Shown here: positions 1 through 40,646 of the stretch, piece by piece | How the letters are laid out: each line of letters starts with the position of its first letter | How positions within the stretch are numbered: the stretch's first letter is position 1 | IMG/VR virus record: IMGVR_UViG_3300020366_000002 | Coordinates: 1 to 40,646 of that record | Origin: a virus | Lineage: Duplodnaviria; Caudoviricetes | Strand: one strand, 5' to 3' | DNA length: 40,646 nt | The notes under the pieces: model-generated | The model's database searches: none | The model's input: the letters and a program-made list of their open reading frames with translations, nothing else | Told to the model about the DNA's origin: nothing | Position numbers and translations under genes: made by a program

Positions 1-77
1 CAGAGACCACCTTAATAACAGCTCAAGAACTAAAGGTAGACGCAGAGACAGCAACAGAAGGTTCTCGTAAACTAGAT
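1..77. repeat. Terminal 77-bp overlap, identical to 40570-40646 (circular assembly junction)
   Basis: cagagaccacc...gtaaactagat appears at both ends. The 77-bp length matches a common assembler k-mer, and the reading frame runs through the junction. Confidence 0.95.
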
Positions 78-548
78 ATAGAGGCTGACACTACGCTTAA
101 AGGTAAACAAGGTTCACTGGTAGACGCTCAAGAACTCAAGACAGACGCAGAAACAGCCACAGAAGGATCTAGAAAGCTAGATATAGAAGCTGATACAACT
201 TTAAAAGGTAAACAAGGTGCGTTAGTTGACGCCCAAGAATTAAAGACCGACGCAGAAACAGCTACGGAAGGTTCTAGGAAGTTAGACATCGAAGCTGATA
301 CTACTCTTAAAGGTAAGCAAGGTTTACTAGTCGATGCACAAGAACTTAAAACAGACGCTGAGACAGCAACTGAAGGCTCTCGTAAACTAGATATAGAAGC
401 AGATACTACACTTAAAGGTAAGCAAGGTTTACTTATAGATGCACAGGAACTAAAGACTGATGCTGAGACAGAACTTTTGACTGCACAGGAACTAAAAACT
501 GATGCTGAGAAAGAGCTTATAGATGCACAGGAACTAAAGACTGATGCC
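3..548 (+). repeat. Coding tandem repeat: four 105-bp units (45, 150, 255, 360) and 42-bp units (3, 465, 507); continues from 40383
   Basis: The units are ETATEGSRKLDIEADTTLKGKQGxLVDAQELKTDA (35 aa) and ExxLxxAQELKTDA (14 aa). Copies differ mostly at synonymous positions. Confidence 0.95.
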
Positions 549-1421
549 GAGGCCGCACTAATAGCAGACCAAGAAGCTTTAATAGAGCAACAAAAGTTAG
601 AGCTAAGTGAAAAGAGAACCTATGAAACTAACGCAGAGTCTGCTTGGTTTCAAAATGGTGGTGTAGGTATTACTGGAGAAAGTGGATACTTCTCATTCAA
701 AGACTTTAAAGAAGAGTTAAGAATGATGGGAATCCAAGAAGGCCCATTTAACGGTTTACCCGCTTATAAGAAAGTAGAGCTAATTAAAGATGCTCATCAA
801 CTACGAGCTAACGTTACACAAGGTGTTGATAATACAGGGACAACAAACCTAAAACTTGTAAACTCAATCTTACGTTTAATAGGAGAGCATAAAGTATCCA
901 ATATTAATGCAAATGCACTTTCTGTAAATGCTTTTGACTTAATGGTTGAGACTAACGAAGAGTTACAATCTAGAGGTTGGTATTTCAATACTACTCATGA
1001 CTATGAATTTACAGCGACTAATCAAGGTATCATATCGACAGCTAATATAACACCAGAAGTTTTAAACGTTGAGATAAACAACGTTAGGACTCGTCGAGAT
1101 TTTAATACACCTACCTACATCTATAATCTAGAAGATCAATCTTACACAACTTGGAGTGGTACAGTAAAAGGTACAATCATACAAAAAGTTGATTTAGATG
1201 CTGTTCCAGTTAAATATCGTCAATACCTAGAAGTTCGTGTAGCTATTTTGTTAACAGAAATGTATCCAAAATCTGGTGTAGACATACAACGTCTTCCTAA
1301 GATGGAAGCAGAACTTAGAGCTTACTTTGCCGACGTCGACAACGACAACGCTAATTATTCTATATTTGACAATTACGACACCTATTCTAGAGTCGGTATT
1401 AACCGTAACTACGAACTATAA
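3..1421 (+). CDS. Tail tubular protein A (gp11-like), 3' part of a gene starting at 39825 and wrapping the junction (about 721 aa in total)
   Basis: Frame 3 is open from base 3 and in frame with the 477-1421 ORF. The C-terminal domain has gp11 motifs VNSILRLIGE, LQSRGWYFNT and VPVKYRQYL. It lies between the capsid and tail tube B genes. Confidence 0.88.
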   Translation, partial: ETTLITAQELKVDAETATEGSRKLDIEADTTLKGKQGSLVDAQELKTDAETATEGSRKLDIEADTTLKGKQGALVDAQELKTDAETATEGSRKLDIEADTTLKGKQGLLVDAQELKTDAETATEGSRKLDIEADTTLKGKQGLLIDAQELKTDAETELLTAQELKTDAEKELIDAQELKTDAEAALIADQEALIEQQKLELSEKRTYETNAESAWFQNGGVGITGESGYFSFKDFKEELRMMGIQEGPFNGLPAYKKVELIKDAHQLRANVTQGVDNTGTTNLKLVNSILRLIGEHKVSNINANALSVNAFDLMVETNEELQSRGWYFNTTHDYEFTATNQGIISTANITPEVLNVEINNVRTRRDFNTPTYIYNLEDQSYTTWSGTVKGTIIQKVDLDAVPVKYRQYLEVRVAILLTEMYPKSGVDIQRLPKMEAELRAYFADVDNDNANYSIFDNYDTYSRVGINRNYEL

Positions 1422-14173: not shown

Positions 14174-15457
14174 ATGCCTAACTCATATATAGAACCAACA
14201 CCCTCGAACTCAGCTATTGATGTTTCGTCACTAAACTATATCTCTATAGACGACCTCCACGCTAGAGGAAGTAATAATGGCGGGACGTCGTGGACGAACC
14301 TAACTATTAGTAGTAGAGATGCTTCAGCTAAAACTGTAACAGTAACAAGCGGGGCAAGCTATAGTACACTTAGAATCTACAGACTGACCACCCAAGAACC
14401 ACTTGTAGATTTTACAACAGGTGCAGTATTGACAGAAGCTGATTTAGATAAAGCTTATCAACAAGGTTTATTTGCGGCACAAGAAGTTAATGAAAATGCT
14501 TCTGGTCAATCCGTAGCTGACCCACAAAATATAGAACAAAGTCAATTAGCTAGTGACTTTGAGTTACCTACGTCTAAGCTTGCTGTTGATGATATTAGTT
14601 TAGGTACTATTAACTTAAAAGATATAAGCGAAGGAGGTTCGGGTAATGCGACAGTAAAGTGTTTTAGAACTGGTACAACAGATCACTTATTACTTTACGG
14701 TGAAGATCATATCGGTCTTAGGGTAGGTTCAAATATCTTTGCTCAAGAAGGTCTTAAACTAACAAGACTCGCCACGCAATCAGACGGTTCTAACTACGAT
14801 ATGACACTTACTGCTCCTAATCTTCGTAAAGAAGATATAACTGATAATAAAGCATTAGTTACTAAAGAGTATTTAGACGACGCACAGACTAGCCAGAACA
14901 CAACACTAGGTACTATTTATGTTGCTAAAACCGATGAATTATCACAAAAAGTAATTAATTGGACGTTTAACGGTCTTACTAATGATTTAGAATCTGACCT
15001 TGGGATTTATGCTGATAGGACTGGGTGGACGTTACAAGTTAATACTACAGGAGGAAACGAATCAGACTTTCTGAGTGATAATGGTAAGTATTTTGGAGCA
15101 CCTCTACAAACAACAAGTGGTCATGCTCTTTATGGTACTTGGAAAATCGAAATCAGTTGGTTTGCAGGGATAGATAAGGGAAGTGGAGGTAGTGACGTTC
15201 AATCTCGATTATACGCGACTCAAAAAGCTAGTGCCGAAGGAGATGATCTAATTACCTTAGGAATGGGCGGTGCTGAAGCAACTACCAATAAAGGTTCTAG
15301 TTTGCATTGGAGTCAAATACTTAAATCTACTGGTAATTCAGATGATGTATTACGTAGATACTTCTTTCCACACGTTGACGAAACAAGTGCAATGGATATT
15401 GACGCAGGCACTATGCAAGCATCCATCACAATAAGTAAAATTTCAAATTCAGTATAA
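14174..15457 (+). CDS. Tail fibre protein (T7 gp17-like N-terminal anchor)
   Basis: LRIYRLT...LVDFTTGAVLTEADLDKAYQQGLFAAQE matches the gp17 N-terminal pattern; follows gp16. Confidence 0.85.
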   Translation: MPNSYIEPTPSNSAIDVSSLNYISIDDLHARGSNNGGTSWTNLTISSRDASAKTVTVTSGASYSTLRIYRLTTQEPLVDFTTGAVLTEADLDKAYQQGLFAAQEVNENASGQSVADPQNIEQSQLASDFELPTSKLAVDDISLGTINLKDISEGGSGNATVKCFRTGTTDHLLLYGEDHIGLRVGSNIFAQEGLKLTRLATQSDGSNYDMTLTAPNLRKEDITDNKALVTKEYLDDAQTSQNTTLGTIYVAKTDELSQKVINWTFNGLTNDLESDLGIYADRTGWTLQVNTTGGNESDFLSDNGKYFGAPLQTTSGHALYGTWKIEISWFAGIDKGSGGSDVQSRLYATQKASAEGDDLITLGMGGAEATTNKGSSLHWSQILKSTGNSDDVLRRYFFPHVDETSAMDIDAGTMQASITISKISNSV

Positions 15458-19024: not shown

Positions 19025-19187
19025 CTTGATTTTTGTTTCTTTTTATCAAGAAAAAGAAATTCGTTTGGTTCTTTGCGAAGCACAAAGAACTTGATTTTGT
19101 TTCTTTTATTAAGAAAAGAAATTCCTTTGGTTCTTTGGGAAGCACAAAGAACTGACCTTTGGTTACTTTGGGGCAGTCCAAAGTAAC
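19025..19187. repeat. Tandem ~60-bp duplication forming an array of five hairpins
   Basis: tttctttt(t)/(a)aaaagaaa stems twice, gttctttg/caaagaac twice, gttactttgg/ccaaagtaac once. Confidence 0.8.
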
Positions 19188-19616: not shown

Positions 19617-20645
19617 TTAGTATGTTTGTAACATATTTAAGTTATTATTAATTATTTTTGAAGCATTGAAGTAGAGCCAGGCTGTAACCATACCTCCTTT
19701 GTCTAGTTCAATGGTAGTTAGTTTTCTTTGGTAGTGCGTAGGGTGACCTTCGAGTCGATCTAAGCTGTACTGAGCGACATCGTCAACCTTGTACACTTCC
19801 ACAGAGACGTTGTGACCTAAGTTAGGCTTGTCGTATACATATGGTAGACCGTGTTCTTCTACCAATGGATACTTGTTGACAGTTATGCCGTGACCTACAA
19901 ACTCTTGACCTTGTAGATAATACTTGTGATTACCCTTGTCTTTCTTGAGTGTACCATAGACTGCGACATAGTCTACGTCGTCCCAAGGATATAGGTCATC
20001 GTATGCTTGTTGTTTCCAAGCTTCTTCGTCGAGCTTGTCAAGGTCAAGAGGATGTGAGTCATAGTCGTCTTCGTAGGTATCTAATGGTTCTACGTCGTCG
20101 ACTGCATATGAACCAGTCTTAGTAAAGTGCTTGTCGTAACTGTAGTAGCCTTTGCTAGAACAGTATGAGGCGAAGCAATTGTTTTTGGAATACCACGCAC
20201 CACCACGCTCATACCAAGTACCGTAGCGTTCTACGTGGCCGTCAGTTACGATACAGAAGCGTGTGTCTGTGAAGCTGAGTATGTCAGCCCAGTGTACTTC
20301 TGGTATGCCCTTGAGTATCTGGCAGACTTCTTCGGTGTCAGTCATCTTGTTGTCACCGAGGTCAGCTACTGTACCGTTACTGAACAGGTATTGTGATGGG
20401 TGTATGGGAAACGGATGGCAGTTGTCAATACCTTTGTCGCCACGTGTAGCGTATCTGTAGTGTGCTACGAGGGGACGTTGTGCATTGATAAGGTCGTATG
20501 CTTCGTCGTAATCGAGAGTATAAAGAACTTCCATTGTGTCTGTGTAAACAATACCGAATCCGTCTGGGTTAGTGAACTCTGCATTGTCGATGATGTGATA
20601 CGGTATAACAGTATCTGGGTTTGGTTTATGTATAATTAAGCACAT
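19617..20645 (-). CDS. Class II glutamine amidotransferase fused to gamma-glutamylcyclotransferase (AIG2-like)
   Basis: Cys2 (MCLII), NPDGFG, HYRYATRG, NCHPF, NG and TDTE; acidic linker; then VAVYGTLK and LDRLEGHP. Confidence 0.9.
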   Translation of the reverse strand: MCLIIHKPNPDTVIPYHIIDNAEFTNPDGFGIVYTDTMEVLYTLDYDEAYDLINAQRPLVAHYRYATRGDKGIDNCHPFPIHPSQYLFSNGTVADLGDNKMTDTEEVCQILKGIPEVHWADILSFTDTRFCIVTDGHVERYGTWYERGGAWYSKNNCFASYCSSKGYYSYDKHFTKTGSYAVDDVEPLDTYEDDYDSHPLDLDKLDEEAWKQQAYDDLYPWDDVDYVAVYGTLKKDKGNHKYYLQGQEFVGHGITVNKYPLVEEHGLPYVYDKPNLGHNVSVEVYKVDDVAQYSLDRLEGHPTHYQRKLTTIELDKGGMVTAWLYFNASKIINNNLNMLQTY

Positions 20646-22624
20646 GGTGTTGTGTTGGCTATAAGGATTTCGTTAAAGTTATTGACTTGTCGTGATTCTA
20701 TAACATCTTGACACCAGTTACGCTGTGCAGATGTAAGGTAGTCACGATCTGAGTCGTCTTGATTGTTTTTGATAAAGTTAACAACCGACGCTAGTGAAGC
20801 ATTAGGGTTGTCGTCTAACCACGCTTGGAACAGGTATGAGTCGACGATGACATCACGCATTCTATGTAAGTCTGCTTTGTATGACTTGTCGAGATACTTG
20901 GTAAGGTCGTGTAACAAGAAACGCATCTTTTGGTACAGGTGTGTACTGAAGAAGTGTGAGTTGAAGTATGAGTCAGCTCTGAGTGATTTGTATAATGTCT
21001 GACGCCCGTACTTGAGGTCTAGTCGTGCATTGGTGAGTTCCATTTGTCGTACATACTCCTCTTTGTGTTGTGAGTAGCTGTACACGTGCGACATAATAAC
21101 CTGCATAAGTTTGAATCTACGCTTGAGTTGTTGTTGATTCTTGACTTTTGAAGGTAGACGAAACTCTAGTCTGTTGCCTTTGTTTTGTATACAACAGTAG
21201 CGACCTCGTTGGTTGGCTGTGCTAAGTTTCTTATTATAGCGTGCATACTCGTTGGTAAGGCGTGGCTTCCATAGTGCATACAACACACCGCAGAATGGTG
21301 ATACTTCTGGTAGGTCTAGTATGAAGTCGTTGACATCTGATGACTTGTACGATATATTTATGTGGCCACCGCATCGTTGATTGGCGTCACAGTTAACGTA
21401 TGTTGAGTTGTCTACGTCGTCAGCAAACTGAGTGTAGTTAGATAAGTTGTACACGTGTGTGATACCTTCTAACCCGCACGAACTGTCTGTTTCCCAGTGA
21501 CTGAACAATGGTTGTATGTCGACACGGTCGTAACGATTGTACACAGTTTGTTCTAGGTTATTCTTTTCTACCTCGAACCCTATGTAGAACTTGTTAAGAC
21601 CTGGCGTAGTTGTGTCTTGGTCTTCGATATGACCCTCTTTGGTTTGCATATCGTCGTCCATATTAGTGTGGTAATCTTGTACGAAGTAAGGGTCGCCACG
21701 GCATTCTTCTCTACGGGATTCTTCTTCGATGTCTTCCCATACACTAGCGTCTTGGTGGTAGTAACAGTCGCGTTCGTCACAGTAACGCATCTCGTCTGAG
21801 TGGAAGTACTCTTCGTTCCATTCGCACCACAGTAAGTCTTCGTGGTCTTGATGATAGAAGTCATAGTTTACAACAGTCCAGTCGCTATTGATTTCGTCCA
21901 TAAATGCACGCATTGCCCAGAATAAACCTTGTGGAACTGTGTATTGACGTAGTATTAGTTGTGAGTGGCGATCGTCTTCTGGGTCAACATCTGCTAACCT
22001 AGTGAAGTCGAAGTATTGCTCTGCATCTATGATTGAACAACGGGTACTTATATTGTTAAACCAAGCACCGTTTATATGTATAGCAAAGAGACGGACATGG
22101 TCTTTATGCATTAGTATCCAGTTGTCTCTGTCGTCTTGTGCAAACACTGCGTTTTCTAAGACATCTTTTAGTGACCATTTCTCTAGTTGGAAGTGGTATA
22201 GGCTAAGGAAGCAGTCATCTCTGTTTAGATAGTCTGGGTCTATTATAGTATTGACGACGAAGTACATATGCTCTGGCTCGACTTCGTAGTGGTCGTCATT
22301 GAGATAACTAAGATTGGTAGCGTCTTCTGCAGTTATGTCTACTAATGAACTACGAGCAAAGGCTATTAGTTCTTCTGCTTCTCGCAGTATACGTTGTGTT
22401 TCTTCGTATTCTGCTTGACCGCCACTTAGATTGTTGTTGCTGATGTAATCCCGACGGTCGCGTATTAGTTGCTTTACAGCGTCTAGTGTACGGTAGCTTC
22501 CGTCATTGTCGATAAAATACGGTTTAACTAATTCTAGTTTGTCTTGTATTTTAGTTTGAAACAGCTCTCTAATGACAGCTGTGTGTGTTATGTGGTTACG
22601 ACGATATTGTCTATGTATATTCAT
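20636..22624 (-). CDS. Putative amidoligase (COOH-NH2 ligase, glutamine-synthetase-like fold) with long N-terminal extension
   Basis: IGFEVE, ETDSSCGLE, CGGHINIS, RY and LEFR motifs, preceded by Cys/His-rich WCEW..YCDERDCYYH. Overlaps the GATase gene. Confidence 0.8.
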   Translation of the reverse strand: MNIHRQYRRNHITHTAVIRELFQTKIQDKLELVKPYFIDNDGSYRTLDAVKQLIRDRRDYISNNNLSGGQAEYEETQRILREAEELIAFARSSLVDITAEDATNLSYLNDDHYEVEPEHMYFVVNTIIDPDYLNRDDCFLSLYHFQLEKWSLKDVLENAVFAQDDRDNWILMHKDHVRLFAIHINGAWFNNISTRCSIIDAEQYFDFTRLADVDPEDDRHSQLILRQYTVPQGLFWAMRAFMDEINSDWTVVNYDFYHQDHEDLLWCEWNEEYFHSDEMRYCDERDCYYHQDASVWEDIEEESRREECRGDPYFVQDYHTNMDDDMQTKEGHIEDQDTTTPGLNKFYIGFEVEKNNLEQTVYNRYDRVDIQPLFSHWETDSSCGLEGITHVYNLSNYTQFADDVDNSTYVNCDANQRCGGHINISYKSSDVNDFILDLPEVSPFCGVLYALWKPRLTNEYARYNKKLSTANQRGRYCCIQNKGNRLEFRLPSKVKNQQQLKRRFKLMQVIMSHVYSYSQHKEEYVRQMELTNARLDLKYGRQTLYKSLRADSYFNSHFFSTHLYQKMRFLLHDLTKYLDKSYKADLHRMRDVIVDSYLFQAWLDDNPNASLASVVNFIKNNQDDSDRDYLTSAQRNWCQDVIESRQVNNFNEILIANTTPCA

Positions 22625-22760: not shown

Positions 22761-22846
22761 TTGGTTTGCTTTGGTTGCTTTGCTTTGCTTTGCTTTGGTT
22801 GCTTTGGTTTGCTTTGGTTGGTTTGGTTGCTTTGGTTTGCTTTGCT
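22761..22846. repeat. Degenerate TTTGC/TTTGG/TTGC microsatellite
   Basis: About 86 bp with no A on the + strand, built from T(2-3)GS units. Confidence 0.95.
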
Positions 22847-22856
22847 ATGTAGACAA

Positions 22857-22905
22857 TGATGATAGTTGTGGGGTCGCCTAGTGATGATAGTTGAGGGCTC
22901 GCCTA
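22857..22905. repeat. 24-bp tandem direct repeat TGATGATAGTTGWGGGSTCGCCTA upstream of the integrase
   Basis: Copies at 22857-22880 and 22882-22905 with 2 mismatches; a partial copy lies at 18372. Confidence 0.9.
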
Positions 22906-32646: not shown

Positions 32647-34185
32647 ATGATAAATAGCACGGCTCAAGAGATCTATACTGTCCTAGAAGGCAAGCGGCAT
32701 CAATTCCTAGATCGTGCCCGTGATTGCTCTAAACTGACTTTACCCTACATTCTTCCAGAAGAAGGATTTGGCTCGCATAGTCGCTTAGAAACCCCCTTTG
32801 CGAGCGTTGCGGCACGCGGAGTAAATAACCTCGCCAGTAAATTATTGTTAGCACTCCTACCCCCGAACGCTCCTTTCTTTCGCCTTCAAGTGGATTCCTT
32901 TGCTCTTAAAAGTGAAGGAGCACCCGAGGAGCTTATTAGTTCCATAGAGGCTCAACTCCAACAAGTAGAGGAGGCAGTCATGGATGAGGTCTCAAGAGAG
33001 ACTTATCGTACTGCATTACACGAAGCCCTAAAGCACCTAATAATCACAGGTAACGCACTTATGTACATTCCAGATACTGGTGGAATGCGTGTGTTCCACT
33101 TAGATAGGTATGTAGTAGAAAGAGATCCTATGGGTAATATTATCTATATTGCCACAAAGGAGAATCTTTCATATTCCGCTTTAACTCCCGATATGCAAGC
33201 AGTATGTGGTCAAGAGGGTGCAAGTCCCGACGACGACGTCGAACTATATACAGCAGTATGTCGTAAGAAAAATAAGTGGGAAGTATTCCAAGATATAAAT
33301 GGAGTACGTGTACCTAACTCTGAAGGTACTTATAAATTAGACAAATGTCCTTTTGTACCATTAAGGTTTTCTCGAATTGATGGAGAGCATTACGGACGTG
33401 GTTATGTAGAAGAATACCTAGGAGACATTCAGAGTCTTGAAGGATTAACTAGAGCTATCGTTGAAGGTTCTTCAGCGTCAGCTAAGGTCTTATTCCTTGT
33501 AAACCCTAACGGTACAACTAGACCTAAAGTACTAGCAGAGTCTCCTAATGGAGCTATAGTACAAGGTAACGCTCAAGATGTAACTGTATTACAAGTACAG
33601 AAACATAATGACCTAAGAGTAGCCCAAGAAACTATGGGAGCGATCAAGGAAAGACTTGGTCACGCTTTCTTGTTAACAAGTGGTACTGTACGTAATGCAG
33701 AGCGTGTCACTGCTGAAGAGATCAGAATGCTCTCTATGGAGCTTGAGAATGCTCTAGGTGGTGTATATAGCTTATTTAGTACAGAGCTCTCTATGCCTAT
33801 GATACATCGTATTATGGCTGTTATGAATAAGAAACGTCGTCTACCTAAACTACCTAAGGATGTAATTAACCCTGTCATTATAACAGGTGTAGAAGCCCTT
33901 GGACGTGGTAATGATTTACAGAAACTAGATATGTTCCTTAGTGGAGCGGCTCAGATGTTTGGCCCAGAGGTTCTCCAACAGTATGTAAATCCAAATGAAT
34001 ACTTTAAACGTCGTGCTACAAGTCTTGGTATTAAAACAGCAGGACTTGTAAAGACAACAGAAGAAATAGAACAAGAAGTGCAACAACAGCAAGCTATGCA
34101 AATGACTGAGAAGTTAGGCCCTTCTGGTATTAAAGCTATTTCTGACCAAGCAAAAAATCAACAACTACCAATAGAAGGCGAGTAA
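32647..34185 (+). CDS. Portal / head-tail connector (gp8-like)
   Basis: ARGVNNLASKLLLALLPP, GEHYGRGYVEEY, AERVTAEEIR and ALGRG motifs. Confidence 0.97.
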   Translation: MINSTAQEIYTVLEGKRHQFLDRARDCSKLTLPYILPEEGFGSHSRLETPFASVAARGVNNLASKLLLALLPPNAPFFRLQVDSFALKSEGAPEELISSIEAQLQQVEEAVMDEVSRETYRTALHEALKHLIITGNALMYIPDTGGMRVFHLDRYVVERDPMGNIIYIATKENLSYSALTPDMQAVCGQEGASPDDDVELYTAVCRKKNKWEVFQDINGVRVPNSEGTYKLDKCPFVPLRFSRIDGEHYGRGYVEEYLGDIQSLEGLTRAIVEGSSASAKVLFLVNPNGTTRPKVLAESPNGAIVQGNAQDVTVLQVQKHNDLRVAQETMGAIKERLGHAFLLTSGTVRNAERVTAEEIRMLSMELENALGGVYSLFSTELSMPMIHRIMAVMNKKRRLPKLPKDVINPVIITGVEALGRGNDLQKLDMFLSGAAQMFGPEVLQQYVNPNEYFKRRATSLGIKTAGLVKTTEEIEQEVQQQQAMQMTEKLGPSGIKAISDQAKNQQLPIEGE

Positions 34186-34978: not shown

Positions 34979-35140
34979 ATGCCAGAAACAACATTAGAAA
35001 TCCTCGAGAAAGGGCTCAACGCTATGACCTTAGCGTGTGAAGCGTTAACTAAACAAAACGATGTACTCAACAAAGATATAGAAGGTCTTAAAAATAAAGT
35101 GAGTCGTCTAGAAGAAAAAATTATAATTAATAAAGAATGA
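34979..35140 (+). CDS. Small coiled-coil protein (53 aa, absent from the ORF track)
   Basis: MPETTLEILEKGLNAMTLACEALTKQNDVLNKDIEGLKNKVSRLEEKIIINKE; ATGA overlap with the next gene. Confidence 0.7.
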   Translation: MPETTLEILEKGLNAMTLACEALTKQNDVLNKDIEGLKNKVSRLEEKIIINKE

Positions 35141-35541
35141 CAACAGAATTAGTAGCAATGCTTGGTGGTGGAGCTAGTGGCTTCATCTTCAAGTTGATTG
35201 GTACGTTAGTCAATGCACAAGCATCTAACGTAGACAATCTAATTAAAAAGTCACAAGCATATACTGAAAGTGCTGATGCCGCAGATAAACGTGGTGGAGC
35301 AGGAGGTGCTTGGGTACGTCGATTCATCGTAGTCGTCGTCCTATTCGGAGTTGTTGTAGCCCCATTCTTATTAGCCCATAGTGGCGATGGAGTAACAGTA
35401 GCTAGTGAGTATAGTAAATGGTTTGGTTTCATAACTGGTACATCCTATGAGACCCTACACGGATACGTCATACTCCCAGAGATCCGTACCTCCATCATAA
35501 CCATCGTATCCTTTTACTTCGGTTCATCAACTGTTAAATAA
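35137..35541 (+). CDS. Membrane protein, 3-TM holin-like
   Basis: Hydrophobic N-terminus, WVRRFIVVVVLFGVVVAPFLL, and C-terminal IITIVSFYFGSS. Confidence 0.6.
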   Translation: MTTELVAMLGGGASGFIFKLIGTLVNAQASNVDNLIKKSQAYTESADAADKRGGAGGAWVRRFIVVVVLFGVVVAPFLLAHSGDGVTVASEYSKWFGFITGTSYETLHGYVILPEIRTSIITIVSFYFGSSTVK

Positions 35542-35586
35542 TATGACTTGTTTACTTTGTGTTAACAGAACCAAGTGTCTTTGTAA

Positions 35587-36321
35587 ATGGACAAAAAATC
35601 AGCGAAAAAAATACTCCTTGAACATCAAGAAGCACTTAGAACGTTACTCGAATCACAAGGTCTTGGTGACGTTAAAGCAGATCTTAAAGAGATTAAAGAA
35701 ACTACTGAGGAAGGTAGGAAAGCTCTTAAGAAATCTTTGGTGGAGCGTATTAAGGATCTACCAGTCGTTCAAAAAGTAAGCGAATTAGGCACTGCGGGTA
35801 CTGTAGCCGTAGCCACGGCGGGTACTGCACAGGTTGGTATAGCTACTGACCTTACGACTGTATTCGTAGCTGAGATTGCAGAAGACGTCGTTGAAGAGAG
35901 ATTTGAAGTTCCTATGTTTATAGACAACTTCGTCGACTTCCACTCATTAAACGCTTGGGGTCAAGTAGTGATCGCTGAGAAGGTAGCTGAGATACAAGAG
36001 TTATCTAGTCCTTCCGAGGTTTCCGAACCACAACCGACACCCACTGATACTCCTGCGTCCGAGGACACCACACAGGAATCTTCTTCTTCTTCACAAGATA
36101 GTCCCGACGATAAGCCTTCTCAGAGTAAACCCACTGAATCAAGCCAAGAATCAAAAGCAGAGAAGTCAGAAACAACAGAAAATAAATCATCATCTGACGA
36201 GCCTAAGGAATCTCCAACAGAAGTCAAGAATGAACTACCTATCGTAGAGACACCTTTTGAACAGATGGGAGACGACATAAAGCCTCATTCAAGTATTAGA
36301 CTAGTATCACCAACATCATGA
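35587..36321 (+). CDS. Hypothetical protein: coiled coil, Ala/Thr/Gly segment, Ser/Glu/Pro-rich disordered tail
   Basis: 244-aa ORF with an ATGA overlap into the next gene. Confidence 0.75.
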   Translation: MDKKSAKKILLEHQEALRTLLESQGLGDVKADLKEIKETTEEGRKALKKSLVERIKDLPVVQKVSELGTAGTVAVATAGTAQVGIATDLTTVFVAEIAEDVVEERFEVPMFIDNFVDFHSLNAWGQVVIAEKVAEIQELSSPSEVSEPQPTPTDTPASEDTTQESSSSSQDSPDDKPSQSKPTESSQESKAEKSETTENKSSSDEPKESPTEVKNELPIVETPFEQMGDDIKPHSSIRLVSPTS

Positions 36322-36482
36322 TTGACTATTTATTCTTAAATTATAAAGACGATTTACTCGCTATAGCTTTTACCTATATCGGTATTGTATCGCTTATATT
36401 AATGTTTCTCCCTAAAAACAATTTCTTTAGCAAAGTCTTCAAAGAGTTTGCTTCAATATTTACATCAATATTTAAAAAATGA
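36318..36482 (+). CDS. Small single-TM protein (54 aa, absent from the ORF track)
   Basis: MIDYLFLNYKDDLLAIAFTYIGIVSLILMFLPKNNFFSKVFKEFASIFTSIFKK; ATGA overlaps at both ends. Confidence 0.75.
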   Translation: MIDYLFLNYKDDLLAIAFTYIGIVSLILMFLPKNNFFSKVFKEFASIFTSIFKK

Positions 36483-36751
36483 GTATAACAGAACCAGAAA
36501 CTAAAGAGTCCATAACTTGGATTACAATCGAACAAGATTGGGAGTGGTATTATTTTGTTCCATTACTTGATCGTGATGAATGGAGTGGTATCGACTACGA
36601 CAACGTCCAATATGGATGGGATGAATTAGACTACAGATTTGGAGTCGACTACCCCGCTATCCCAGAGCCCGCTGATGCAGGCTTTGTAGGAGCTATCTTG
36701 GTTGCTATATTCGTTGCATTTACCTATTTTAAAACCCGAACAAACAAATAA
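36479..36751 (+). CDS. Protein with C-terminal PEP-CTERM-like sorting signal
   Basis: Ends AIPEPADAGFVGAILVAIFVAFTYFKTRTNK: IPEP, then a TM helix, then a basic tail. Confidence 0.75.
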   Translation: MSITEPETKESITWITIEQDWEWYYFVPLLDRDEWSGIDYDNVQYGWDELDYRFGVDYPAIPEPADAGFVGAILVAIFVAFTYFKTRTNK

Positions 36752-36756
36752 TAACT

Positions 36757-37029
36757 ATGGCATTCAAAACTACATTCACTTCTAACACTTCTACTACTCT
36801 TGACTGGGTAGGTGGTGAAGGTGTACTTCTTGCAAGTGGCACATTTGGTAGTGGTAAAGTTACACTGGAGCAAGATATTAACGGAACATACGTAGCTATC
36901 GAAGACGCTGAATTATCAGCAGATGGTGGCTTCAAATTCGTTACATCTTCTAAACAGTTAAGACTTACCTACTCTGGTGGTACTTCACAGAACGTATTCA
37001 CAAGCGTAACAGCGTTATCTAAATCCTAA
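36757..37029 (+). CDS. Small beta-rich protein, possible virion decoration/structural protein
   Basis: SGTFGSGKVTLEQ motif and Thr/Ser/Gly-rich strands. Confidence 0.6.
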   Translation: MAFKTTFTSNTSTTLDWVGGEGVLLASGTFGSGKVTLEQDINGTYVAIEDAELSADGGFKFVTSSKQLRLTYSGGTSQNVFTSVTALSKS

Positions 37030-37033
37030 ATAA

Positions 37034-37966
37034 ATGAACCTTATGTCTTCCCAAGTATCTCCTCTTGTGCAGAGCCTTGTCACAGCACAAGTTGCAGTAG
37101 ATAAAACTATATTCGATTCAGCTTTTGCTATATATGGTACGGTAGATTATTTAGGTAATGGTAACAATGTTATTAGATTTTATAACTCTGGGGCAAGCAC
37201 TACTGAAAGAGATTTCACAGCAACAGAACTAACTGATGGTACTTATACAACTTGGTTAGATGGTGCGGCTTCTAGTGGTACTAGGGTGGCTAAACTGTAT
37301 AATCAGAAAGGTAACTCAGCTTTAGATCTACAACACCCAAGTTCTTCAAGCAGACCTTGGTATGAATCAAGTGAGAACACAGTAAGATTTGATCAATTAA
37401 ATTATTTTAACTACGCAGTTTTGTTTACAACAAGTGCTGAATCAACATTATCTCCTTTTGAAAACAATACAACAGCAAATGACACAACTCTTGTTCTAGG
37501 TGCTAGAAAGAAAGACAGTTCATTGTACGGATTGCCTGCCTCTTCTAGAACATTGTTTGCTTTAAGAGATAGCGTTTCTCCATCATCTCCATATAATGTC
37601 CCACACAAAGCGTTAGCTATAAAGGCGGGTACGTATTCTGATGATATAGCTATTTCAGCAAGGGGTGATGACTTTACACACGTTATAGCAGAACACGATG
37701 TATTTGACCATAGTACACTTAAAACATACATAGGTGAAATCAAGAGAAACCCAGTTAGTGGTGTTACATCAACTGATATGAATTTATTTGTTAACAATAC
37801 GCAAGAAGTAGATACTACTACAACTAGCTTAGATGCTGATATAGACATAGGTTCTATATATCTAGGTGACAATAAATATATAATGAAAGGTGCTCTATTG
37901 TTTAATAAGATTTTAACATCTGAAGAGAAATCAGAACTACATACTAGAATGTCACAGGATTATTAA
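37034..37966 (+). CDS. Putative virion appendage protein (LamG/lectin-like beta-sandwich)
   Basis: ERDFTATELTDGT, VAKLYNQKGN and C-terminal LLFNKILTSEE patterns reminiscent of phage LamG-like domains. Confidence 0.55.
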   Translation: MNLMSSQVSPLVQSLVTAQVAVDKTIFDSAFAIYGTVDYLGNGNNVIRFYNSGASTTERDFTATELTDGTYTTWLDGAASSGTRVAKLYNQKGNSALDLQHPSSSSRPWYESSENTVRFDQLNYFNYAVLFTTSAESTLSPFENNTTANDTTLVLGARKKDSSLYGLPASSRTLFALRDSVSPSSPYNVPHKALAIKAGTYSDDIAISARGDDFTHVIAEHDVFDHSTLKTYIGEIKRNPVSGVTSTDMNLFVNNTQEVDTTTTSLDADIDIGSIYLGDNKYIMKGALLFNKILTSEEKSELHTRMSQDY

Positions 37967-37967
37967 T

Positions 37968-38201
37968 ATGCATAAATTTTTAATATACCAAACAAAAGCA
38001 GAAGCCGACTTACGAGCTGATGAAGAAGGTCAAACACGTAACTTACCTTATTGGGAAGATCCTATTAATGTGACAAGAACCTATACTGCACCTATATATA
38101 CTTTAGATGGAGAGTGGGCTCTGGAAGTTACAGAGTATACTTTAACAGCAGAAGAAGAAACCCAAGTAGTGGAGGATATAAATGTAGAAAGATATGAGTA
38201 A
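37968..38201 (+). CDS. Small acidic hypothetical protein (possible fibre chaperone)
   Basis: 77-aa ORF directly after the putative appendage gene. Confidence 0.65.
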   Translation: MHKFLIYQTKAEADLRADEEGQTRNLPYWEDPINVTRTYTAPIYTLDGEWALEVTEYTLTAEEETQVVEDINVERYE

Positions 38202-38436
38202 ACGTAAAGGTGTAAGCCTAAGAAAAGAACATAAAAACCCTACAGGTGGTTTAAACGCCAAGGGACGTGCTTATTACAACCGTAAAACAGGATCTAACCT
38301 AAAAGCCCCACAACCTAAAGGAGGCCCTCGTAAGAGGTCTTTTTGTGCTCGTATGAAGGGTGTTAAAGGCCCTATGAAAGACTCTAAAGGGAGACCTACA
38401 CGTAAGGCTCTCGCACTAAGAAAATGGAAATGTTAA
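38194..38436 (+). CDS. Small highly basic phage protein
   Basis: GGLNAKGRAYYNRKTGSNLKAP...RKRSFCARMKG...ALRKWKC. Confidence 0.8.
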   Translation: MSKRKGVSLRKEHKNPTGGLNAKGRAYYNRKTGSNLKAPQPKGGPRKRSFCARMKGVKGPMKDSKGRPTRKALALRKWKC

Positions 38437-38676: not shown

Positions 38677-39744
38677 ATGTCATTTACGACAACTACAAAT
38701 GCCGCTTCACGAGTAGGTTTAGATACCAATAACTCGGGTGCAGGTAACGAATCCTTGTTCCTCAAGGTCTTTAGTGGTGAGATCCTCACTGCTTTTGAAA
38801 CAGCAACAGTTATGAAACCTCTTCATACTGTTCGTACTATATCAAGTGGCAAATCTGCCCAGTTCCCAATCACAGGTATCGCTTCTGCGGCTTACCACTC
38901 AGCGGGACAGGACATCTATGCCAACGCTTCAAGTCAAATCTCTGACATCAAGAAAACTGAAAGAACAATCGCTATTGACGACGTATTGATCTCTTCAACT
39001 TTCTTAGCGAAGATTGACGAATTAATGAACCACTACGATATCCGTTCTATCTATGCTTCTGAGCTTGGTAAAGCTTTAGCTAAGCAGTTTGATTTAGCTA
39101 CAATGAAAACATTGTTTGCGGCGGCTAAGACAGGTGCAAATATCTCTGGTGATACTAAAGCTGGTATCCAGTTATCTGGTACTGATTTAGATACAGACAC
39201 AGAGATCATCAATGCTCTGTATGATATCGCTACTGGATTAGACGAAAACGATGCTCCTTCTGAAGGACGTTTCGCTATCGTAGCTCCTAAAACCTACAAT
39301 ACAATCTTAGCTTCTGGTAACAACGCTGTTAGCAGAGACTTTGGTACTGGTGGTAATATGGCTACAGGTGTAATCCAAAGTGTTGCAGGTATCCGCCTTA
39401 TCAAATCAAATCACCTAGCTGACATTGCGGCTCTTGGAGACAAGACAGCGGCTTCTGGTACTAATGATGGTATCCACGGTTCAGCTTCTGTTAAGAATGA
39501 TGTTGGTGCATCTGGAGATGGTTACCAATCAGACTTCAGCGGACTTGTTACAGGTTCAGCTGGATCTGAGAAATACGGTATCATTGCAGGTACTCCACAA
39601 GCGATCGGTACAGTTAAGTTACTTGATTTAGCTACTGAGTCAGAATACCAAATACAAAGACAAGGTCACTTGTTCGTTGCTAAATATGCAATGGGACACG
39701 GTGTACTACGTCCAGAGTGTGCGGCAGTTTACGAAGTAGACTAA
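38677..39744 (+). CDS. Major capsid protein (gp10-like)
   Basis: LFLKVFSGEILTAF, RTISSGKSAQFP, HYDIRSIY and KYAMGHGVLRPECA motifs. Confidence 0.97.
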   Translation: MSFTTTTNAASRVGLDTNNSGAGNESLFLKVFSGEILTAFETATVMKPLHTVRTISSGKSAQFPITGIASAAYHSAGQDIYANASSQISDIKKTERTIAIDDVLISSTFLAKIDELMNHYDIRSIYASELGKALAKQFDLATMKTLFAAAKTGANISGDTKAGIQLSGTDLDTDTEIINALYDIATGLDENDAPSEGRFAIVAPKTYNTILASGNNAVSRDFGTGGNMATGVIQSVAGIRLIKSNHLADIAALGDKTAASGTNDGIHGSASVKNDVGASGDGYQSDFSGLVTGSAGSEKYGIIAGTPQAIGTVKLLDLATESEYQIQRQGHLFVAKYAMGHGVLRPECAAVYEVD

Positions 39745-39762
39745 GAATTAACCCCTCAACTC

Positions 39763-39806
39763 GAAGTCCTCATAGGTTTATCCCTATGGGGGCTTCCCCT
39801 TTTTTT
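39763..39806 (+). terminator. T-phi-like terminator after the capsid gene
   Basis: gaagtcctcatagg-tttatc-cctatgggggcttc stem with G-U pairs, then ccc and a T7 run. Confidence 0.85.
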
Positions 39807-39824
39807 AATAATTTATAAAATAGA

Positions 39825-40646
39825 ATGGCATCAACGACGACGACCCCAACAACACTTACCCAATCAGTTAATATTATATTAGCTAACATCGGTGAAGCAC
39901 CTGTAAACTCTGTTGCGGGTTCAGTACCCCAACAAGTTTCATTAGCTCTTAATACACTTACAGAAGTTAGTAGAGATGTACAATCAAAAGGTTGGTGGTT
40001 TAATCAACAAAGCGGTGGTAATTACAGTGAATCTGCTAATATTACATTATATGATATTAACGTAAGTAATGATTGGAATACTAACATTCCAGAAGAGGCT
40101 GTAAGATATATAACCATTAGAGCCGCTAGAATCGCTAATAGTCGTTTTATAGGAGCTGAAGAGCTTCAAAAGTTTTCACTAAATGAAGAGCTAGTAAGTC
40201 TAGCTATACTTCAACAAGCACACGTAAGAAACTCCAATGGAGTTCTAGATTTTAATTCATTCCCCTCTGAGCTTAAATCGTTAGGCGTCGACGAGGTCAT
40301 GTTCCTTCAAGGTAATGTTGAAGAGAAATATGGTACACTAAGATTAGCTAGTGAAGTAGTTAATCAAGCTAAAACTAAAGCTGAGACAGAGCTACTAACA
40401 GCTCAAGAGCTTAAAACAGACGCTGAGACTACCTTAGTAACAGCACAAGAACTACAAGTAGATGCTCAAACAGCAACAGAAGCTTCTCGTAAATTAGACA
40501 TAGAAGCAGATACAACTCTTAAAGGTAAACAAGGTTTACTTGTAGATGCACAAGAGTTAAAAACAGACGCAGAGACCACCTTAATAACAGCTCAAGAACT
40601 AAAGGTAGACGCAGAGACAGCAACAGAAGGTTCTCGTAAACTAGAT
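39825..40646 (+). CDS. Tail tubular protein A, 5' part (absent from the ORF track; continues at the window start)
   Basis: ATG at 39825: MASTTTTPTTLTQSVNIILANIGEAPVNS...EVSRDVQSKGWWFN...IPEEAVRYITIRAAR. Open to the window end, with repeats starting at 40383. Confidence 0.9.
   Translation, partial: MASTTTTPTTLTQSVNIILANIGEAPVNSVAGSVPQQVSLALNTLTEVSRDVQSKGWWFNQQSGGNYSESANITLYDINVSNDWNTNIPEEAVRYITIRAARIANSRFIGAEELQKFSLNEELVSLAILQQAHVRNSNGVLDFNSFPSELKSLGVDEVMFLQGNVEEKYGTLRLASEVVNQAKTKAETELLTAQELKTDAETTLVTAQELQVDAQTATEASRKLDIEADTTLKGKQGLLVDAQELKTDAETTLITAQELKVDAETATEGSRKLD

Follow-up and report, generated by a model that had tools for sequence, protein, structure and literature searches.

The window analysed here, 40,646 nt long, is the complete circular contig of a T7-like phage. 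Positions 1–77 are identical to positions 40570–40646, the circle measures 40,569 nt, and the IMG/VR record is classed as having direct terminal repeats. The genome encodes a T7-type RNA polymerase, a primase-helicase, a DNA polymerase, the portal, scaffold, capsid and nozzle proteins, internal virion proteins, a tail fibre, a terminase and an integrase. The public runs listed as holding the window stretch are labelled marine or seawater metagenome, and no RNA dataset is among them. Between the major capsid and nozzle genes, in the T7 gene order, lies an adaptor gene whose stop codon is overlapped by the nozzle ATG (Table 1). The adaptor gene crosses the contig junction: positions 39825–40569 and 1–1421 join into 2166 nt that encode 721 residues and contain a single stop, at the end.

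The reality of this ORF, which the first-pass annotation had proposed, is borne out by the joined translation. The translation contains all six motifs quoted at that stage and is identical, letter for letter, to the database protein P0003, found on four contigs (the longest of 41,186 nt). One contig of run X5 covers positions 39600–40646 plus 1–461 with the exact 77-nt overlap, and the listed contigs of run X7 cover the join piecewise, each with no more than one mismatched letter; either run may be the source of the window. The circle contains no exact internal repeat of at least 33 nt, so no repeat compels the join made at k=77. An assembly artefact in which two genes were joined through a mis-assembled repeat, a concern raised at first reading, is already largely refuted and extremely improbable given the join-spanning contig, the identical database protein and 155 proteins with the same domain order. 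Several contigs of the phage do stop inside the repeat (L001, L025 and L113), which makes the exact copy number fragile. Because assemblies often break there, single copy numbers need long reads. Near-identical database entries of 651, 756 and 791 residues differ by whole 35-residue units, and the 756-residue form occurs on 11 contigs versus 4 for the 721-residue form.

The 721-residue protein contains two gp11 domains, copies A and B, at its ends. Both halves match phrog_446 and exceed the 22.3-bit cut-off of the Pfam Tube family (PF17212), so that the doubt whether only one half resembles gp11 falls away. No further gp11 was found in the window genome. A four-helix up-down bundle is predicted in both copies. 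In fold comparisons, copy A of the family member P0156 (model) aligns with the KHP30 adaptor (Z 10.3, rmsd 3.4, 120 aligned), and copy B aligns with T7 gp11 (Z 15.0, rmsd 5.3, 178 aligned). The β-sheet fibre dock is predicted in copy B only, where a 72-residue middle forms five strands; copy A retains a 28-residue remnant, in agreement with the very short and full middles described earlier. Across the relatives, the middle of copy A spans 20–36 residues in 108 of 109 two-domain proteins, and the one exception is a regex miss.

Table 1. Features of the double-adaptor locus and its partner genes in the window
Feature	Position	Strand	Basis
Tail fibre, T7-type N-terminal anchor domain	14174..15457	+	PF03906 E 1e-6
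Portal protein	32647..34185	+	PF12236
Major capsid protein, upstream neighbour	38677..39744	+	PF21703
Terminator-like hairpin and T run, capsid-adaptor gap	39763..39806	+	consensus match only
gp11 copy A, residues 1-137, four-helix core, fibre-dock middle of 28 aa	39825..40235	+	PF17212 82 bits
Module X1, residues 141-176, two short helices into long helix	40245..40352	+	invariant residues, HHalign, predicted fold
Heptad repeat, first part, from residue 194	40404..40646 (40570-40646 duplicates 1-77)	+	sequence
77-nt terminal direct repeat (assembly overlap of circular contig)	40570..40646	.	first and last bases identical
Second part of heptad repeat (units end at residue 438, predicted helix at 467)	1..656	+	arrays, model
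Module X2, residues 478-516, second small helical module	687..803	+	invariant residues, HHalign
gp11 copy B, residues 527-721, full fibre-dock middle, predicted portal-embracing C-terminal tail	834..1421	+	PF17212 55 bits
gp12-like nozzle, 973 aa	1421..4342	+	PF25675 E 6e-188

The two gp11 copies are separated by a long heptad helix that is flanked by small helical modules. Among 99 aligned proteins, the invariant residues are P147, G154, F160 and K168 in module X1 and R489, E495, F498, K505 and K506 in module X2. X1 and X2 are homologous (HHalign E 6e-6, probability 85%); one copy of this ~36-residue module follows gp11 copy A and the other precedes gp11 copy B, and the P0156 model, which is better resolved, gives both a matching three-helix outline. 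The DNA of the heptad region consists of 105-nt and 42-nt arrays. The encoded units from residue 194 measure 14, 35, 14, 35, 35, 35, 35, 14 and 14 residues and end in a looser unit of 14, which reproduces the earlier count of five 35-residue and five 14-residue repeats (245 residues). The predicted helix, approximately residues 165–467, exceeds this repeat. The first-pass annotation was correct on the two gp11 domains and the heptad spacer; it lacked the duplicated flanking module, the split of conserved surfaces between the copies and the link to tail tubes, which are described below. Two candidate resemblances of the module gained no support. A villin headpiece-like fold gave no Pfam match to E 10 for either module and is not among the listed matches of fold searches that were dominated by gp11 domains, and a copy of gp11's own tail received an HHalign probability under 1%. 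A search of the ESM Atlas with residues 138–525 yielded no usable match or model.

The double adaptor belongs to a large family. The C-terminal 472 residues used as a query found 239 proteins among 7994 scored candidates, and two gp11 signature motifs occur in 109 of 120 among the matches listed. The homologue collection, which had been recommended for a comparison of repeat counts, comprises 216 proteins, fragments and unrelated matches included; 155 of these, from 43 lineages, carry all six blocks in the same sequence. Their shared layout is gp11-A, small module, heptad helix, a second copy of the module and gp11-B. Their lengths range from 462 (L093) to 1095 residues, with helices of 27–643 residues. 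In related loci, the adaptor gene likewise lies between the capsid and nozzle genes, in some with an inserted fibre gene. A quick capsid tree places the whole set of 30 double-adaptor rows in one clade (97%), which also contains 6 single-adaptor rows; this topology would be compatible with a single origin of the double adaptor. In a quick tree of the copies, all 22 A copies form one clade (97) and all 20 B copies another (100). No clear stand-alone copy A was observed among 19 matches to shorter proteins, which by their lengths and by 11 inspected cases are fragments and two plain single gp11s. Cultured phage records covering 80% of either half numbered 0 of 117 and 0 of 12, the repeat DNA had no blastn match in phages, and a GTDB scan for a host link returned 7 loci, all with a single gp11. 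The best match of the RNA polymerase is an uncultured phage at 40%. These comparisons pointed to no host. Large insertions in the copy B dock or in the X2-B gap are observed in P0156, P0167, P0207, P0074, P0095, P0101, P0079 and P0212, and the members with the shortest helices are among these.

The spacer helix varies in length but keeps its phase. Of 138 anchored sequences, 127 have a length of 6 modulo 7 between the invariant lysine and the invariant glutamate; the same holds for 34 of 37 lineages, over a 24-fold range (27–643 residues). A total of 229 sequences was examined; the rest were incomplete, unrelated or without the anchor. The final anchor was chosen after looser anchors that include a variable hairpin, with which the phase was weaker (66/90, 103/155 and 87/151). 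In near-identical pairs, the length difference is a multiple of 7 in 194 of 196 cases. Proline occurs in 1 of 43 spacers. P0156, the minimal member, has a 27-residue spacer, as does P0167 when counted on the sequence, and AlphaFold models P0156 with one unbroken helix (residues 165–201). The corresponding helices measure 83 residues in P0084 and 293 in P0003. The shortest member would thus have no hairpin, because its spacer is too short for one and is modelled straight. In the single-chain model of the 721-residue protein, the helix is broken at residues 304–334 into two equal, hairpin-like arms (pLDDT 37–48, pTM 0.38). In models of this kind, a long helix on its own frequently folds back. 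A complex prediction with two copies of P0084 residues 8–507 scored 0.01 and was given no weight. With a helix rise of 1.4–1.5 Å per residue, the 303-residue helix has a calculated length of 42–45 nm, and the family would extend from ~5 to 95 nm. The whole T7 portal-adaptor-nozzle assembly is reported to measure 29 nm (PMC6702177).

Outside the family, the repeat resembles tail tubes found in N4-like phages. Module X1 plus the repeat, searched against 1.84 billion proteins, gave 53 hits, namely 30 family members, 18 N4-like tail tubes and 5 others; the tubes, classed by the ends of the BUCT194 protein, make up 18 of the 23 non-family hits. By tblastn, the repeat matches this virion protein of the N4-like Vibrio phage BUCT194, which itself matches B2 gp34, DEV gp75, N4 gp54 and Moo19 at E 1e-22 to 3e-18. 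A spacer-only profile (19 loci) against the PDB gave two hits to E 10, with DEV gp75 at the top at a non-significant E of 0.11. The heptad position profiles of the family and the tubes are alike (Q/E/D, L, L, D and A positions), the Q position being partly built in by the phasing. Exact shared words exceed all 200 heptad-phase shuffles in only 7 of 19 tubes, which had been picked by likeness. One exact word of 14 residues is common to the adaptor and a tube gene in an N4-like head region (L039:3740-4633), and this locus is a clue to possible exchange between T7-like phages and N4-like phages. The latter may have been the source of the repeat. Shared ancestry and convergence are both possible, and the sequence would suit a 12-helix barrel either way.

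DEV gp75 is described as a dodecameric tube with outer and inner diameters of 63 and 36 Å and a length of ~330 Å (PMC11445570), and N4-like tubes are reported as single-layer, 12-fold and helical (PMC13730344; PMC13434306; PMC11654681). The diameters of such a tube and of an adaptor ring would fit, because the lumen of the T7 gp11 ring is reported as 40 Å (PMC6702177) versus 36 Å inside gp75. The adaptor-binding N-terminal part and the plug-binding C-terminal part conserved in the tubes were not seen in family members. The adaptor is not a member of the tube family phrog_2050, since neither half matches it, and may work like such a tube. Suspected resemblances of the repeat to microvirus pilot proteins and to the P22 portal barrel were dropped, as neither appeared in the PDB sequence searches. 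In P0170 and P0178, which lie outside the two families, the same repeat follows a helical domain that is connector-like by eye and has no name in Pfam or PHROGs. These two proteins are possibly an independent connector-plus-tube fusion.

We propose that twelve copies of the protein would form two adaptor rings with a 12-helix DNA tube as the spacer between them. The order would be portal, ring B, tube (~300 residues, 42–45 nm here), ring A and nozzle, a reading to which we give a probability of about 0.6; a tube between two rings in either order is likely. Ring B, from the C-terminal copy, would grip the portal protein through the canonical tail, and ring A would sit on the nozzle side. Because the C-terminus of copy A points toward the portal, the helix would run upward, starting at ring A and ending at ring B. 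The number of heptad repeats would set the tube length and give a T7-like phage a longer rigid tail. The twelve copies, the straight parallel tube, the ring order and an advantage such as access through a thick cell coat are all inferred. We lean slightly toward the wider claim that a single gene encodes ring, tube and ring, with the tail length written in the heptad repeat without a tape-measure protein and changing, as repeats are gained and lost, even between strains of one phage.

The first-pass annotation had offered two models, and the evidence favours the second, two rings with a length-tunable spacer, through the fixed phase, the 12-helix tube relatives and the straight 27-residue helix. 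Its first model, in which the A and B copies of six chains alternate around a single pseudo-12-mer ring that bears six hairpin whiskers, is improbable on the same grounds, as the minimal member P0156 is modelled with a straight helix and no hairpin. That model would provide six fibre docks for six fibres and would match the 12-to-6 symmetry step, alternate T7 subunits being already described as different (PMC6702177), and the 721-residue monomer model is hairpin-like. Half of such a ring, however, would lack the portal-binding tail and the acidic patch. Each P-SCSP1u fibre is reported to use the docks of two neighbouring adaptors (PMC10575957), and the dock is shortened in copy B too in 26 of 155 members.

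Two directly stacked 12-chain adaptor rings, as in Pa223, GP4 and crassviruses, with the repeat looped out as 12 helical hairpins, are unlikely, if the best placed of the alternatives. Stacked rings have solved examples in Pa223 (10.1101/2025.06.11.659172) and crAss001 (PMC10172136), the two equal helices and central break of the 721-residue model agree with them, and the split of conserved surfaces fits them as well. The straight helix modelled for the 27-residue member argues against looped-out hairpins, and the fixed phase would be superfluous if a turn could absorb odd lengths. Moreover, the spacers contain no conserved turn and almost no proline, and the nearest outside relatives are parallel tube proteins. 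The mid-helix break in the 721-residue model and the E of 0.11 for the gp75 match in the PDB count against the 12-helix tube between rings.

The order of the rings was assigned from the conserved surfaces of the two copies. Segment scores compare 50 family members with the 26 of 37 single gp11s that were anchored. Helix 3 (3.21 in A versus 1.03 in B) and the helix 3-4 loop (1.83 versus -0.90) are conserved in copy A. The C-terminal tail (2.35 in B versus -1.01 in A; 2.93 for the singles among themselves) and the acidic patch at the helix 4 end (3.44 versus 0.33 acidic residues) are conserved in copy B. The helix 1-2 loop is retained in both copies (3.71 in A and 3.00 in B), and its asparagine is kept in 16 of 41 A copies and 1 of 41 B copies. 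L032, L034, L035 and L037, the nearest single gp11s, have A-type loops together with a B-type tail in one domain. The way features are divided between A and B, as read from the sequences, matches a duplication after which the two copies split the roles. In the published descriptions of T7 and P-SCSP1u, the adaptors bind the portal clip through the helix 4 end and the C-terminal embracing helix and contact the nozzle through the helix 1-2 loop (PMC6702177; PMC10575957). The helix 3-4 loop would also face the nozzle, judging from the bundle topology. T7-type fibres are described as docking between the adaptor dock and the nozzle (PMC6702177; PMC10575957), and those of P-SCSP1u also bind the adaptor helices and the nozzle platform (PMC10575957).

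These surfaces bear on a reversed tube, in which ring A sits on the portal and the helices descend to ring B, which holds the nozzle and fibres. The reversed order would place the intact dock of copy B beside the nozzle, as in T7, and would run from N to C away from the head, as reported for DEV gp75 (PMC11445570); the loss of the dock in copy A could leave room for the descending helices. This order is improbable, since the portal-binding tail and acidic patch belong to B and not to A, the C-terminus of A faces the portal and would need a full turn back, and the helix 3-4 loop of B has diverged. Three points tell against ring B on the portal. The nozzle-side copy A would have no fibre dock although the fibre keeps its T7-type anchor, which is awkward; the helix 1-2 loop that makes the established nozzle contacts is present in both copies; and the chain has to pass up along the outer side of ring B before it arrives at the N-terminus of B. 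The first of these points is eased by the 26 of 155 members with a shortened dock in B too and by the further contacts of the P-SCSP1u fibres with adaptor helices and nozzle platform.

A precursor or scaffold role, with cleavage of the long protein or entry of just one domain into the tail, is very unlikely. Copy A is split in two contigs, L021/L096 and L095, as a precursor might suggest. The L095 split is probably due to sequence errors, because other L095 genes are fragmented as well. Both domains and both modules carry invariant residues in the 99 aligned proteins, and no motif resembling a cut site was noted.

The tail of T7-like phages is regarded as short and constant in length, with the envelope crossed by ejected proteins. 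The present protein shares the fold, motifs and capsid-nozzle gene position of T7 gp11 or tail tubular protein A (PF17212; P-SCSP1u gp22, KP32 TTPA). However, T7 gp11 is one domain of ~200 residues forming one ring, whereas the family has two diverged copies and a long helix in 462–1095 residues. The Schitoviridae tail tube (DEV gp75, N4 gp54, Moo19 gp71, B2 gp34; phrog_2050) is like the repeat in sequence and heptad pattern. It is described as a separate protein, positioned under a single adaptor and terminated by a plug; in the present family, the middle repeat alone is shared, and adaptor domains cap both ends. Multi-ring tails (crAss001 R1-R5, Pa223 gp63-a/b, GP4 gp81/gp82) are likewise lengthened by more than one ring of the adaptor fold. 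These rings are described as separate, directly stacked polypeptides without a covalent link, helical spacer or repeat-coded length, unlike the single gene that holds both copies here. The Pseudomonas podophage A1002 is described with an adaptor, nozzle-like parts and a 12-fold helical tube of ~240 Å, the tube being a separate protein below the nozzle, and not described as a T7-like gp11 fusion (PMC13730344). The adaptor of Peru-2 is described as an ordinary one (10.64898/2026.06.25.734500).

Among PDB structures, fold searches returned single-domain adaptors; they also returned a handful of long viral proteins that contain one adaptor-like domain. The latter include BFVD entries Q6RCF4, A0A516L4P3, A0A516LTA4, A0A516M5L4 and A0A6J5LSM0 (500–1100 residues), for example from Vibrio phage VP2, and adaptor fusions may be commoner than described. 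A gp11 with two domains and a repeat-bearing spacer was not found in the literature searched; one may be mentioned in the supplements or in the many subscription papers beyond its scope. Stacked adaptor rings and helical tubes are known, each as separate proteins, and their fusion is new as far as searched. Long podophage tails are reported to arise by three earlier routes, phi29-like funnels, N4-like tubes and stacked adaptor rings (PMC13730344, 2026); if the proposed architecture is true, the fused ring-tube-ring would be a further route. Tail length could then evolve in 1-nm steps, and taxonomy would mislead on the morphology of an uncultured phage group. The double adaptor is hidden under labels such as "tail tubular protein A" or "hypothetical protein". 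Were the proposal true, the family would also supply a natural series (27 to 643 residues) with which tail length could be compared with the thickness of the host coat, as well as a DNA-conducting tube that is encoded by one gene and has a programmable length.

Several neighbouring genes differ from those of T7 or of single-adaptor phages. A fibre-like gene lies between the capsid and double-adaptor genes in L013:2355-3458, L014:2310-4004, L022:1348-2103, L093:423-1097 and L097:293-1558. Most relatives with this gene share an acidic N-terminus in its product, some products have what is presumably a chaperone-like end, and the protein could dock on the tube or a ring. Complete nozzles beside double adaptors are 908–1099 residues long (16 rows); those beside single adaptors are mostly ~780 residues, with several of 833–993. 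In the window, positions 34979–38436 hold ~3.5 kb of small genes between the scaffold and capsid genes, including membrane-like proteins and a DUF6321 gene; T7 has none there. The minus-strand block at 19617–22624 consists of two genes. One encodes a fusion of glutamine-amidotransferase-like and gamma-glutamyl cyclotransferase domains; a 662-residue protein of the block, without a profile match, is one that we take to resemble an amidoligase. Non-coding tandem arrays flank this block at 19025–19172 (31/62-nt period) and 22761–22905 (5- to 25-nt periods), the latter directly before the integrase gene.
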